46,364 nucleotides of DNA, taken from positions 1 to 46,364 of the forward strand of contig JBECUL010000013.1 of assembly GCA_040225955.1 (NCBI GenBank), written 5' to 3'. The translations under genes and the position numbers were made by a program. A model generated the notes under the pieces. The model had not been told where the DNA came from, searched no databases, and saw only the letters and a list, made by a program, of their open reading frames with translations. This DNA comes from Candidatus Asgardarchaeum abyssi. GTDB lineage: Archaea > Asgardarchaeota > Asgardarchaeia > Asgardarchaeales > Asgardarchaeaceae. This document shows, piece after piece, positions 32,276 to 35,730 of the stretch. Each line of letters begins with the position of its first letter. Position 1 is the first letter of the stretch.

Positions 32276-32347
32276 CCTCCTATAGAAAGTAATAAATAAC
32301 TCGACAAATAAAAGATATTTTAGAATAGAGCATTTGGGGTTGAAATA

Positions 32348-32656
32348 ATGGAAAATAAACCATGGAGAGTTATAACAGTTGATGTAGAGCCAAGACAAAA
32401 GGCCTTTAGAATAGGAATATCTCCTGATACGAAAATTGGTGATGTCATAAAAACATTAGTTGAAAAATGTCGTGAGGAGAATATAGACATTGATAAGTGG
32501 GCAAAAACAAAAGTAGGCGAGCAACATCCAGAGTTCGTAATAATTAGAAAGGCAACATCTGAAATTCTTCCTCCGGCTTTAACATTCGAGGAGCTTCAAC
32601 CACCAATTGAAGAAGATGAGGAATTTCTTATAGATGTTCGCGCAATTGTGGGATAA
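32348..32656 (+). CDS. ubiquitin-like (beta-grasp) protein ending in exposed -VG
   Basis: b1 RVITVDV, b2 AFRIGI, PDTKIGDVIKTL (cf. Ub PSDTIENVKAKI), b3 FVIIRK, ILPPALTFEEL (cf. QLEDGRTLSDY), IEEDEEFLIDVRAIVG* (cf. IQKESTLHLVLRLRGG). Confidence 0.75.
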   Translation: MENKPWRVITVDVEPRQKAFRIGISPDTKIGDVIKTLVEKCREENIDIDKWAKTKVGEQHPEFVIIRKATSEILPPALTFEELQPPIEEDEEFLIDVRAIVG

Positions 32657-32658
32657 TA

Positions 32659-33324
32659 ATGCAATATCTTCCTCCATTACTAATGAATAAGCGGATTAAT
32701 GTTCAAATTAATTTATTTTTTAGTAGAATGGCATCCTTTTATAAATCACGTAGATGGGTTTGGGAAAATCCTAAGATTTCTAAAGATTATTGGGTAAATA
32801 AAGACTATGAATTACGTGTGATTAAGAGGTATAATGATGGGGCGTATAATGTTCTAAAATATATCATAAACAACCTTCCGAGCTATTCGAAAAAACCAAG
32901 TAAAGTTGAAGATTTATCAGCGATATCATATATGCATAAAATATTAATCTATATACCAAGAGAGTATCCTGCATCTTTAGTTAATATACGATTCAAAGTA
33001 GAAACTCCTCTTTTTCATCCAAGAGTATCTCCTTTTGGCTCATTAAGAAATATATGCTATGTTGTTATGGGCGAAATTGATAGAGTTTTGGAGGATTTAA
33101 TTTTCTTTTTACTTCTTAAACCAGATAGAGTTAGACCTCCAGCTTTATATCCGAAAGAAGATTATGGCCTGAATCGCGAAGCAATGTTATGGTACCAAAG
33201 AAATTATAAGAAAGTAGTAAACTTTCTTGAGACTTTATGGGACAAAAGACATGAAAAAGAACCTCTAAGTGTTGAAAAAATAAGGGAGAAGAAGAGAGAG
33301 GGAGGTATTGTGTTTATTGAATGA
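32659..33324 (+). CDS. E2/UBC-fold ubiquitin-conjugating-like enzyme
   Basis: HKILIYIPREYP...IRF..ETPLFHPRV...NIC (HPN variant at 33016; Cys at 33055)...LNREAMLWY; TAATAATG junction with the Ubl gene. Confidence 0.8.
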   Translation: MQYLPPLLMNKRINVQINLFFSRMASFYKSRRWVWENPKISKDYWVNKDYELRVIKRYNDGAYNVLKYIINNLPSYSKKPSKVEDLSAISYMHKILIYIPREYPASLVNIRFKVETPLFHPRVSPFGSLRNICYVVMGEIDRVLEDLIFFLLLKPDRVRPPALYPKEDYGLNREAMLWYQRNYKKVVNFLETLWDKRHEKEPLSVEKIREKKREGGIVFIE

Positions 33325-33520
33325 TAAATTAGAGGATCATTTCAGCGAAGAGGAGCAAGAAATAGGAGAAAAACGTAAGGTTGTGATAATTGATGAAATT
33401 AATTTGCCAATTATTGAAAAGCCTCCACCCAATTTTTTCCCCTCAAAGTATAAGATAAAAATACATAAAGCTTCTAACTACAAAAAATATATTTTAAGTA
33501 GTACTAAAGAGGGGCCATAA
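33308..33520 (+). CDS. small hypothetical protein (possible adaptor or truncated JAB/MPN N-terminus)
   Basis: Fills the gap exactly, overlapping the E2 stop and the next ATG (TAATG); GGAGGT RBS at 33301 suggests TTG 33317 start. Confidence 0.5.
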   Translation: MCLLNDKLEDHFSEEEQEIGEKRKVVIIDEINLPIIEKPPPNFFPSKYKIKIHKASNYKKYILSSTKEGP

Positions 33521-34698
33521 TGAGTTTATTTAGTTTCTTCGTTCAAAAAAATAAAGGAAATATATTAAGGAAAAATAAAACCTATACTCAAGATGAAACC
33601 ATAATTCTAACACTTGACATCTCTAAACTACCTGTTGGTACATATATATTAAAAATCATGGATCCCTATAACAGAACAATATACCAACAAAAAATCAGTA
33701 GGGAAAGTAATCGTATTGTTGGGAAGTATATTCTCTCAATACCCCTTTCGGAAAGTTATCCAGATGGCATATACTCTGTTTATGTAATAAATATTGCTTC
33801 TGGATCTACTTTTAAGGAAACTTTTATTGTAAAAAACCCATATTTTTCAAAACGTGAAATAGTTCTTTTTAACTATTTTAGAATAATTAATTATAATGGG
33901 CAAGAAATATTCGATGTTTATGCTAGAATAGTTAAGCCTCCCCATATCCCTACGGTTCAAGAGATAAATTCTATAACGCCTCTTAATTTCACTCCACTAA
34001 GAGAAGAAACCGACTTAGACGGAAATGAATGGCTAGTTGCTAATTTTGAGAAAATTGATGAGAACAAGTCTATAGATATAGGATATAAATCGAAAATTAC
34101 TCTTCTAAGGAGGTCCTATATTCCAGCAAAGCTTTCACCCTCAGATTATAAAAAATACACCAATAGTGAACCATATATTGAATCAGATGACCCAAGAATT
34201 ATTAGGATAAGCGAATCTCTATACCATCGCAATTTTTATCAATTTATTAAAAACATTCAAAAATGGTTACATAAGAATATCTCCTATAGGGAGATGCCTA
34301 GTGAAAATGGAGCTCTTTTTGCTTTAAAAAATAAAATAGGTGACTGTACAGAGTTTTCTTCTCTTTTTGTTGCAATCTGTAGAGCTGCAAACATACCATC
34401 AAGATTAGTTGCAGGTATTGCAAAAGGGAAAAAATGGGAAAATCATGCCTGGGCAGAGTGTTATTATGACGGTAAGTGGATAGCTGTTGAACCCACATGG
34501 AAAGAATATGTAGGTCTTTTTGGTTATTTCACAAATAGAATCACTCTTCTTTATGGTAATTGGATGGGGGATTTCATTACGAGGGATTTTTCTATAAGAT
34601 ACCGATATCATGTTAAAAGGAATAAGGAAAGAATAAATTTTTCAAGAAATATAAAGATATTAAACTATCATTACGTACAAGAAAAAAGAAAAGTGTAA
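33520..34698 (+). CDS. transglutaminase-like cysteine enzyme with N-terminal Ig-like beta-sandwich
   Basis: GDCTEFSSLFVAICRAANIPSRLVAG, HAWAECY, WIAVEPT (Cys-His-Glu/Asp triad); no signal peptide seen. Confidence 0.88.
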   Translation: MSLFSFFVQKNKGNILRKNKTYTQDETIILTLDISKLPVGTYILKIMDPYNRTIYQQKISRESNRIVGKYILSIPLSESYPDGIYSVYVINIASGSTFKETFIVKNPYFSKREIVLFNYFRIINYNGQEIFDVYARIVKPPHIPTVQEINSITPLNFTPLREETDLDGNEWLVANFEKIDENKSIDIGYKSKITLLRRSYIPAKLSPSDYKKYTNSEPYIESDDPRIIRISESLYHRNFYQFIKNIQKWLHKNISYREMPSENGALFALKNKIGDCTEFSSLFVAICRAANIPSRLVAGIAKGKKWENHAWAECYYDGKWIAVEPTWKEYVGLFGYFTNRITLLYGNWMGDFITRDFSIRYRYHVKRNKERINFSRNIKILNYHYVQEKRKV

Positions 34699-35310
34699 TT
34701 ATTCTTCTTCTCCAAGCTCTCTCAGCAATCGCAAAAGCACAAGTTCTGAAATCTTTTTAAAACCTTCTATAATCCCAATACCCCTGGGAGCTACTGTTTC
34801 AAAAAAGGCGTCTGCATGGTCAAATATCTTTTTTATGAGATAAACTGGTGCCGCATTAGGCAGATCACGTTTATTGATGAAAACAACCATTGGTAGATCT
34901 TTTCCTATTTCTTTTCCTAGAATTTTTTTGGTAAGTTTCTTAAGTTCTTTATAGCTTTCTAAGTTATCTTTAATTCTTGTCATCTGAGAATCTGCTACAA
35001 AAATAAAACCATCCGCATATTTCACTTGCTCTAACACTATAGCACGTCTATCAGAATACTGTTCTTGACCGGGAACAGTATAACAATGAAATAAAACTTG
35101 GACTTTGCTTTTTTCATCCTCAGGTAAGATTACGAATGGAACAAAATCGAACATCATTGTAGAACCTTTTTCGTCCTCTATCTTAATTAGCTCACCTTTT
35201 TTAAGAAACGGTACATTATTATATATGTATTCTAATGCTGTAGTTTTTCCGGCCTCTGAAGGTCCCCAAAATATAAAGAATATATGAATCTCACTATCTT
35301 CTTTCTTCAT
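34699..35310 (-). CDS. MglA-family small GTPase
   Basis: WGPSEAGKTT, STMMFDF, YTVPGQ, DGFIFVADS, NKRDLPNA, ETVA. Confidence 0.88.
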   Translation of the reverse strand: MKKEDSEIHIFFIFWGPSEAGKTTALEYIYNNVPFLKKGELIKIEDEKGSTMMFDFVPFVILPEDEKSKVQVLFHCYTVPGQEQYSDRRAIVLEQVKYADGFIFVADSQMTRIKDNLESYKELKKLTKKILGKEIGKDLPMVVFINKRDLPNAAPVYLIKKIFDHADAFFETVAPRGIGIIEGFKKISELVLLRLLRELGEEE

Positions 35311-35322
35311 TTAGCTCCCTCA

Positions 35323-35730
35323 CTAAAGGGAATTAAAAATACTTGGTGGTATCCCTAATTTTACTAAATGTTTCGAGACATTGTCATATAGTCCTTTGTT
35401 AATCATTTCAAGCAAATCTACTGGGATTCCCAGTTGTACAAGTTTTGATTTTAAGGCCCCGCTCTTTGGTATCAGTTGTTGCGCTCTTTTCATAGTTTCT
35501 ACCATTACGGTATTAAAGAATGCGTTATCTATGAATCCTTGTTTATATAGCATAGTGCAATCATTTGCCATGCATCGAAGTCTTTCGGTTGCCTTATTTA
35601 GTCTAATATACTCTATAAGAGCACTATTTCTCATTTCCAATTCTTCTCGTGTTAAATTCATTTTTATCTTTATTCTTGATTCTTGAAATAAGCCTCTAAA
35701 AAGGCTTCTTAACAAACCCATATTAATCAC
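35323..35730 (-). CDS. hypothetical helical protein co-transcribed with the MglA-like GTPase
   Basis: GGTGA RBS before ATG 35721 (MGLLRSLFRG...); 12 bp from the GTPase start. Confidence 0.65.
   Translation of the reverse strand: MINMGLLRSLFRGLFQESRIKIKMNLTREELEMRNSALIEYIRLNKATERLRCMANDCTMLYKQGFIDNAFFNTVMVETMKRAQQLIPKSGALKSKLVQLGIPVDLLEMINKGLYDNVSKHLVKLGIPPSIFNSL

Follow-up and report, generated by a model that had tools for sequence, protein, structure and literature searches.

Ubiquitin-type conjugation in archaea is known from the 'eukaryote-like' operon of Caldiarchaeum subterraneum and Asgard archaea, which encodes ubiquitin, E1, E2, a small RING finger protein and an Rpn11-like JAMM peptidase (PMC3082918, PMC5654768, PMC6043591); JAMM-type processing and reversal by the Caldiarchaeum Rpn11 are described in PMC6043591. 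We analysed a 46,364-nucleotide stretch of DNA from Candidatus Asgardarchaeum abyssi (hereafter the window; GCA_040225955.1, JBECUL010000013.1, positions 1 to 46,364), which is contig C13 of a 2.6-Mb Asgard metagenome-assembled genome (MAG) that is 93% complete, and focused on the four-gene operon at positions 32,348 to 34,698. This operon encodes a ubiquitin-like protein (Ubl), an E2, a micro-protein of 70 residues and an enzyme of the transglutaminase fold (TGase). We consider it likely that a complete, lineage-specific Ubl system is split over two loci and that the operon is one of its halves; in this system, E1, E2 and a zinc protein would form a cascade with processing and reversal by a JAMM peptidase, working on or around an Smc5/6-like complex, and the operon would supply the tag, the E2 and two accessory proteins.

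In eukaryotes, the Smc5/6 complex carries two ligase arms, the RING of Nse1 (ubiquitin) and the SP-RING of Nse2 (SUMO); we know of no TGase-fold subunit in this complex. In the UFM1-UFC1 pathway, the mature modifier ends in Val-Gly, and the E2 lacks the canonical Asn of HPN and carries an N-terminal helical extension. Legionella MavC reportedly performs an E1-independent, transglutaminase-type ubiquitination of UBE2N. SMC5/6-related SMC-kleisin-kite operons have been described in TACK and Asgard archaea, with the RING of Nse1 as a eukaryotic gain that is missing from archaeal kites (van Hooff et al., bioRxiv 10.1101/2024.01.07.573240). A TGase fold bound to a Ubl protein is known from PNGase and Rad4-Rad23 (PMC6222260).

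Results

A four-gene operon for a Ubl, an E2, a micro-protein and a TGase

The list of open reading frames (ORFs) of the window contains four intact, consecutive genes on the forward strand:

32348..32656, + strand: Ubl, a beta-grasp modifier of 102 residues with the C-terminus ...AIVG (AlphaFold2 fold and invariant VG).
32659..33324, + strand: E2, a divergent UBC fold of 221 residues with a long N-terminal helix, HPR, Cys133 and a C-terminal GGIVFIE motif (AlphaFold2 fold and motifs).
33308..33520, + strand: micro-protein of 70 residues with an acidic N-terminus, a [KR][IV]x[IV][IL] strand motif and a PPPNF.P..Y.I.IH core (orthologs).
33520..34698, + strand: TGase, a Transglut_core thiol enzyme of 392 residues with a Cys276-His309-Glu triad and a beta-rich N-terminal region (Pfam PF01841).

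The Ubl/E2 junction reads GGGTAATAATG, in which 2 nt separate the two genes; the micro-protein gene, which starts with TTG, overlaps the end of the E2 gene by 17 nt; and the junction between the micro-protein and TGase genes reads CCATAATGAGT, in which the final A of TAA is the first base of the TGase ATG (1-nt overlap).

The AlphaFold2 model of the Ubl (predicted local distance difference test score, pLDDT, 87.5) is a beta-grasp fold. A Foldseek search of the PDB placed Caldiarchaeum ubiquitin (6fno_D) first, followed by SUMO1 and ubiquitin, and all 65 PDB entries matched at E≤1e-3 were of the Ub/SUMO/ISG15 type; sequence profile searches of Pfam and the PDB returned no significant match, including none to the ubiquitin family PF00240. 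The protein has no di-glycine terminus and ends in Val-Gly, which is invariant among the 20 orthologs aligned, and Gln17 is nearly invariant. In Hermodarchaeota, one to three residues follow the Gly (Y, D, VLP, QKQ, F, Q, L, IK or I). Judged by sequence, an invariant Gly with tails of one to three residues marks a modifier whose activation takes place at this residue.

The E2 was likewise modelled as a UBC domain (pLDDT 85.3), and every top Foldseek match in the PDB was a UBC-fold E2 (Ube2g2, Cdc34, Ubc9; E about 3e-4). PREYP, HPR (residues 120-122, with Arg in place of the canonical Asn) and Cys133 are invariant among 19 orthologs, and a profile search of the PDB aligned the protein with the PxxYP...HPN...C active-site region of E2s. 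Against Pfam UQ_con the score was 17.6 bits, under the cut-off of 27, and the family is small and distinct, with 56 clusters at E≤0.001 in 1.84 billion representatives. An earlier note on this DNA, made from the sequence alone, had described four coupled genes beginning with a beta-grasp protein with a C-terminal Gly and a UBC-fold protein with a Cys; the junctions, the folds and the invariant residues bear out all three statements.

The remaining enzymes are encoded at a second locus

The window itself contains no E1 or JAB gene. A genome-wide search revealed exactly one ThiF-family E1, one Prok-JAB protein and one member of a Cys-rich zinc-protein family, all of them on a second contig, C20. 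The genes there run from an SMC-like protein (943 residues) through a 261-residue protein, a 187-residue winged-helix-like protein, the zinc protein ZnR-B (157 residues) and the JAMM peptidase (171 residues; motif HSHP...S..D) to the E1 (291 residues; ThiF-family gene at C20:30628-31392). In the corresponding order SMC-kleisin-kite-ZnR-B-JAB-E1, the 261- and 187-residue proteins take the kleisin and kite positions, labels taken from their place in the operon and from van Hooff et al. (bioRxiv 10.1101/2024.01.07.573240). The genome encodes two hinge-bearing SMC proteins, a canonical one and that on C20, which matches both prokaryotic Smc and SMC6.

The E1 is the ortholog of the E1 that adjoins Ubl-E2 in relatives, and its profile matched the adenylation domains of UBA6/UBA1 best (5e-29), above those of NAE, MoeB/ThiF and UBA5 (6e-16). 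The genome-wide search found no canonical UQ_con or ubiquitin genes, and the split set is therefore the genome's only Ubl conjugation set. The zinc proteins share eight conserved ligands in the pattern C-x2-C...C-x2-C-x4-C-x2-C...C...H, and from this sequence evidence we infer that ZnR-B may be a RING-like E3.

These results alter the picture given in the earlier note, which had treated the lack of E1, E3 and JAB as a property of the system: an E1, a JAMM peptidase and a RING/FYVE-like zinc protein are all present on C20 of the same genome. Its suggestion that an E1 could act in trans proved correct, as the sole ThiF-type E1 lies on C20 and its ortholog stands in cis in relatives; the inventory of host E1s that it had proposed yielded this one enzyme.

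Apart from the single E1, no separate MoeB/ThiF-type enzyme was found in the 93%-complete genome; the E1 may also serve sulfur-carrier functions, or those pathways may be absent.

Four modules are reshuffled and retained together across Asgard families

We surveyed 400 Asgard genomes, with families labelled f1 (that of this genome), f11 (Hermodarchaeota), f23 ('Heimdallarchaeota' MAGs), f22, f9 and f4. The E2 family was present in 33 of the 400, including all 19 Hermodarchaeota, 10 of the 12 'Heimdallarchaeota' MAGs, both f22 genomes and the present genome. In Hermodarchaeota, a helicase-JAB-E1 row converges on an oppositely oriented row in the order Ubl, E2, micro-protein, ZnR-A and TGase, beyond which follow SMC, kleisin-like, kite-like and ZnR-B genes; ZnR-A, found in the relatives 5' of the TGase gene, is a paralog of ZnR-B. 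In the 'Heimdallarchaeota' MAGs, SMC, kleisin, kite, ZnR-B, JAB, E1, Ubl, E2 and micro-protein genes form one row, and a ZnR-A-TGase pair lies farther along the contig. ZnR-A invariably precedes the TGase in both families. The order in f22 and f1 is that of the window, Ubl-E2-micro-protein-TGase; for f1 it is known from this genome and from GCA_052584985.1 (E2 57% identical). The set is split between two loci in both of these genomes (C13 and C20 in the present one), and clustered in Hermodarchaeota and 'Heimdallarchaeota'.

Four modules can thus be recognised, Ubl-E2-micro-protein, ZnR-A-TGase, JAB-E1 and SMC-kleisin-kite-ZnR-B, which were reshuffled between lineages yet kept together, and this retention despite reshuffling is the strongest evidence for a joint function. 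The earlier note had asked whether the Ubl-E2-TGase synteny recurs and whether E1 and JAB sit alongside: the TGase adjoins Ubl-E2 in four families, f1, Hermodarchaeota and f22 among them, and lies nearby on the same strand in a fifth arrangement, so that its co-conservation with Ubl and E2 holds, and E1 and JAB adjoin Ubl-E2 in Hermodarchaeota and 'Heimdallarchaeota'. A decayed copy of an ordinary operon is ruled out, as all four genes are intact and their order is conserved in GCA_052584985.1, at an E2 identity of 57%.

Two side observations concern the neighbours of these modules. In Hermodarchaeota, the gene directly 5' of JAB-E1 encodes a superfamily 2 helicase of 487 residues (ResIII/Helicase_C; L006:3230-4690, with equivalents in L007 and L044-L049), whose weak C-terminal match to XPB/Rad25 hints at a DNA-repair context. 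In the 'Heimdallarchaeota' genome G110, the 6.3-kb block between Ubl-E2-micro-protein and ZnR-A-TGase (L040:10942-16991) contains two histidine/phenylalanine ammonia-lyase-like genes, a CBS-domain gene and a histidyl-tRNA synthetase gene.

The set is also found, dispersed, in Planctomycetota

Ubl-E2 genes were identified in six Planctomycetota MAGs, at 32-40% identity. None of these loci has a TGase, E1 or JAB gene adjacent to Ubl-E2, and what is seen is co-occurrence without synteny: all five Planctomycetota genomes searched whole (G400-G404) also encode an E1 ortholog (337-365 bits), a TGase of the clade described below, a ZnR-B-type protein and, at 170-185 bits, a kite-like protein, with every gene on a contig of its own among unrelated neighbours (L096-L107, L123-L127). 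Retention of the set without linkage supports one functional unit that includes the TGase; this evidence is moderate only, the Planctomycetota TGases having been chosen as the best match of each genome. It would seem that this SMC-linked Ubl set of the Asgard type passed between domains and was scattered afterwards.

In all six Planctomycetota loci (L089-L094), the Ubl frame continues past Val-Gly-Gly into an N-terminal helix of the archaeal-E2 type, after which a -1 frame change at a conserved A10 run leads into the E2 body (L090:2603-3552, L092:2630-3555). This arrangement suggests programmed -1 slippage, which would give a Ubl-E2 fusion, and metagenomic relatives carry in-frame Ubl-E2 fusions (P0018, 301 residues). 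The fusion forms would need cleavage after the Gly and tie Ubl and E2 tightly to each other; together with the tails found in Hermodarchaeota, they point to the Gly as the site of both processing and activation.

The TGase belongs to a distinct clade that follows the system

The TGase matched Pfam Transglut_core (PF01841) at 86.5 bits (cut-off 23; E 1.9e-24). Two residues of the triad, Cys276 (in GDCTE) and His309, do not vary; the third is Glu in this protein and Asp in its relatives, and every clade member, those of f4 included, has the triad intact. This agrees with the Cys-His-Glu triad assigned in the earlier note. The nearest solved structures are 3isr, a putative Cys protease (2e-17), and then TgpA (6g49), and a PNGase/Rad4-type assignment of the domain is unsupported. 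Reading of the N-terminal sequence revealed no hydrophobic stretch, which makes the enzyme putatively cytoplasmic, as the earlier note had it.

TGase-like matches occur generally in 310 of the 400 Asgard genomes, whereas orthologs above 360 bits were found only in Hermodarchaeota (19 of 19), in 'Heimdallarchaeota' MAGs (11 of 12) and in this genome. In a tree of 33 sequences, a split with a Shimodaira-Hasegawa-like approximate likelihood ratio (SH-aLRT) support of 97 unites the TGases of f1, f11, f23, f22, f9, f4 and Planctomycetota, and sets this clade apart from other Asgard TGase-like proteins, including a paralog on contig C2 of the same genome. The gene is adjacent to and translationally coupled with the row of Ubl, E2 and micro-protein genes (with ZnR-A where present) in f1, f11 and f22, and the TGase and the micro-protein are co-inherited with the system in four Asgard families despite the rearrangements.

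The micro-protein and a shared strand motif

The 70-residue ORF, listed as such in the earlier note, proved to be a real gene: in an alignment of 12 orthologs, the PPN..P....H core is kept along with an R-I-V-I-L-type strand, and the orthologs hold the same position in f1, f11, f22 and f23. No Pfam match was found. Its conservation and its own motif rule out a spurious ORF or a JAB remnant.

A strand motif of the type G-[RGK]-[IV]-x-[IV]-[IL]-[DE] recurs in the otherwise unalignable E2 tails, with one copy in this lineage and three in Hermodarchaeota and 'Heimdallarchaeota', as well as once in the micro-protein and twice in the ZnR-A tails. The sites, often reading G-R-V-x-I-L-D, are as follows:

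33240-33324: strand motif in the E2 tail.
33370-33400: strand motif in the micro-protein.
L006:7898-8281: strand motif in the ZnR-A tail.

Counts of [IV]x[IV][ILVF] were 37 against 3.5 expected in E2 tails, 12 against 2.3 in the micro-protein and 16 against 1.7 in ZnR-A tails, and none of 2000 composition-preserving shuffles reached the observed counts, a statistic that counts kin sequences and so overstates their independence. Because the motif resembles SUMO-interacting motifs, it may dock the E2 tail, the micro-protein and ZnR-A on a common partner by beta-strand addition, possibly on the Ubl.

Leader and flanking genes

One further feature lies directly 5' of the operon:

32276..32347, + strand: intergenic leader preceding the Ubl gene, of putative function; the sequence itself shows a TATA-like stretch rich in A and T, and GGGGT some 8 nt 5' of the ATG.

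The flanking genes are housekeeping or unrelated; upstream lie genes for a tRNA methyltransferase, an Rce1-like protease and a methionine aminopeptidase (MetAP). The neighbours on C20 include housekeeping genes for fructose-bisphosphate (FBP) aldolase/phosphatase and cysteinyl-tRNA synthetase (CysRS). Downstream, genes for an MglA/Arf-like GTPase and a 135-residue partner (34699-35730, - strand) run towards the TGase gene and abut its stop codon (0-bp gap). Both genes also stand 3' of the operon in the relative L050, which indicates that the neighbourhood is kept within the lineage; no link of the pair to Ubl genes was seen outside the loci of this lineage.

Discussion

The operon as a probable half of a split Ubl pathway

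In the pathway that we consider likely, the Ubl would be made ready for use in this organism, while tailed (Hermodarchaeota) or fused (some bacteria) forms would be cut behind Val-Gly, for which the JAMM peptidase is the likeliest enzyme, as in Caldiarchaeum. The single E1 on C20 would adenylate the C-terminal Gly and pass the Ubl to Cys133 of the E2. The RING/FYVE-like zinc protein, encoded directly 3' of the kite gene, may then serve as an E3-like adaptor, with the SMC complex or proteins on DNA as the probable targets, and the JAMM peptidase would remove the mark. The TGase and the micro-protein would be conserved accessories of this pathway, the TGase being no substitute for the E1.

Several points weigh against this reading. 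What was observed directly are folds, motifs, gene sets, synteny and a phyletic pattern, and every biochemical step is deduced from these. The zinc proteins match FYVE/RING Pfam families weakly (E 0.004-0.03), and a profile search of the PDB gave no sequence match for them; Pfam and PDB sequence searches likewise gave no support for the kite and kleisin identities (homology to Nse1/Nse3/Nse4). Related genomes are non-independent samples, and the kinship among the motif-bearing sequences adds to this. In 'Heimdallarchaeota', the TGase is not adjacent to Ubl-E2 and lies 6.3 to about 40 kb away. Finally, family f4 has neither the E2 family (0 of 31 genomes) nor the E1 ortholog (best match 110 bits, against more than 337 for orthologs), and it keeps the SMC-kleisin-kite-ZnR-B row (kite in 28 of 31) with a TGase of the same clade 1.3-8 kb away, an arrangement seen in about 19 genomes of five genera (loci L055-L057, L118).

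The role of the TGase

The persistence of the f4 TGase without Ubl, E2 and E1 indicates that this enzyme is not strictly Ubl-dependent; it may act for the SMC complex, to which the Ubl pathway would be an added layer. Within the split-pathway model, we tentatively favour a thiol peptidase or isopeptidase over a transamidase or a deamidase, and its substrates would be the substrates or conjugates of the SMC-linked pathway.

A serious possibility, if on the unlikely side, is that the TGase belongs functionally to the Smc5/6-like complex, for example as a protease acting on the kleisin or on DNA-bound proteins, and stands near Ubl-E2 because both are parts of a larger SMC-centred module, an explanation that overlaps with the split pathway. 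The f4 loci speak for it, since a clade TGase with an intact triad is maintained close to the SMC row of genomes that have no E2 or E1 ortholog. However, the coupling in f1, Hermodarchaeota and f22 is to the Ubl-E2-micro-protein(-ZnR-A) row and not to the SMC row, and in Hermodarchaeota and 'Heimdallarchaeota' it is the RING-like ZnR-A that always precedes the TGase.

We regard as unlikely, on present evidence, that the TGase, its RING-like partner and the micro-protein are built into an archaeal Ubl pathway on an Smc5/6-like complex as one of its catalytic arms, either as a Ubl-directed protease that would open or clear SMC-kleisin rings or DNA-bound proteins, in analogy to separase or Wss1, or as a Ubl-cross-linking transamidase. 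If true, the TGase would represent an enzyme class new to ubiquitin-type systems and predating eukaryotes.

It is improbable that the whole set of SMC-like proteins, Ubl system and thiol enzyme is a defence against mobile elements rather than a housekeeping chromosome system. Bacterial immunity is reported to involve both SMC-like complexes (Wadjet, Lamassu) and modules of E1, E2, JAB and Ubl (Bil, CBASS Cap2/Cap3), and the set crossed domains to Planctomycetota; on the other hand, it is uniform within families (19 of 19, 10 of 12), its genes are single-copy among housekeeping genes (MetAP and tRNA methyltransferase at the operon, FBP aldolase/phosphatase and CysRS on C20), and in Planctomycetota it is scattered over many contigs, unlike compact defence islands.

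Even less credit goes to the view that the TGase is a mere neighbour through inherited gene order with no functional tie. TGase-like genes are indeed common among Asgard genomes, and synteny within a family is inherited and non-independent, but the linkage outlasts at least four gene arrangements across families, start and stop codons overlap, and the TGases form an orthogroup of their own that follows the system and is met again in its Planctomycetota carriers.

The earlier note saw in the TGase either a ligase that needs neither ATP nor E1, by MavC-like transglutamination, or the deconjugase dedicated to this Ubl, and in the operon a new conjugation chemistry without E1, E3 and JAB. This proposal draws on a window without E1 or JAB, on the co-conserved TGase with its invariant triad and on the nearly invariant Gln17 of the Ubl, and is nevertheless the most improbable of these alternatives: the cognate enzymes are on C20, with orthologs next to Ubl-E2 in relatives, E1 and JAMM are inherited together with the system in each carrier lineage covered (f1, Hermodarchaeota, 'Heimdallarchaeota' and Planctomycetota for the E1 ortholog), the invariant Gly with cleavable tails and the invariant E2 Cys point to an adenylate/thioester route, the TGase clade persists without Ubl, E2 and E1 in f4, a MavC-like role is unnecessary, and an E1-less system as such is ruled out by the one cognate E1, in trans here and in cis in relatives.

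Implications

With the modifier and the E2 of the SMC-side Ubl pathway now named, Ubl, E1, E2, zinc protein and JAMM peptidase are all identified, and the pathway becomes accessible to reconstitution. Should the SMC complex be its target, Smc5/6 and ubiquitin-type ligases would have been tied to each other before eukaryotes arose, in contrast to the recent analysis that treats this tie as a eukaryotic innovation. The analysis further adds two conserved, unexplained parts, the micro-protein and a TGase-fold enzyme that is predicted from its triad to be catalytically intact. Because the set appears to have been exchanged with Planctomycetota, more tractable bacterial hosts may be available for genetics.

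Comparison with known systems

The nearest parallel is the Caldiarchaeum system. The same five component types occur in this genome (the RING assignment being weak), a JAMM peptidase is present for trimming and deconjugation, Caldiarchaeum ubiquitin is the best structural match of the Ubl, and the E1 is nearest to adenylation domains of the Uba1/Uba6 type. Unlike in Caldiarchaeum, the Ubl and E2 fall under the Pfam ubiquitin and UQ_con thresholds, with VG in place of GG and HPR in place of HPN; the zinc protein is FYVE/RING-like with C..H as its last ligand pair; and the genes occupy two loci rather than a single compact operon, with a TGase, a micro-protein and SMC-kleisin-kite linkage in addition.

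The likeness to Smc5/6 lies in a second hinge-bearing SMC whose gene stands with kleisin-like and kite-like ones, after which come a zinc-finger gene and enzymes of the Ubl pathway (C20, Hermodarchaeota and 'Heimdallarchaeota'); the difference is that the zinc protein here is a separate gene. The VG terminus of the Ubl and the HPR and N-terminal helix of the E2 recall UFM1-UFC1, whereas neither protein has a sequence match to UFM1 or UFC1 and the E1 profile favours UBA6/UBA1 over UBA5 by the E-values given above; membership in the UFM1/UFC1/UBA5 family is unsupported by the profile searches with Ubl, E2 and E1.

As in MavC and PNGase/Rad4-Rad23, a thiol enzyme of the papain/TGase type is tied to Ubl and E2. 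MavC differs in that a cognate E1 is present and co-inherited here, and PNGase in that our TGase is closest to generic COG1305-type enzymes such as 3isr and TgpA. The bacterial Bil/Bub systems and the Cap2/Cap3 modules of the cyclic-oligonucleotide-based antiphage signalling systems (CBASS) share the set of E1, E2, JAB and Ubl in a prokaryote (bioRxiv 10.1101/2023.09.26.559546, 10.1101/2024.11.21.623953), and also share the feature, seen here in some carriers, of a Ubl fused to or processed from a partner; the present system is set apart from them by context and accessories, namely a housekeeping setting, vertical inheritance in Asgard families, the SMC link and the TGase. Our literature searches found no description of a Ubl-E2-transglutaminase system. 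Archaeal E1-E2-RING-JAMM systems are already known; what is new here are the divergent Ubl and E2 families, the SMC linkage, and the conserved TGase and micro-protein.

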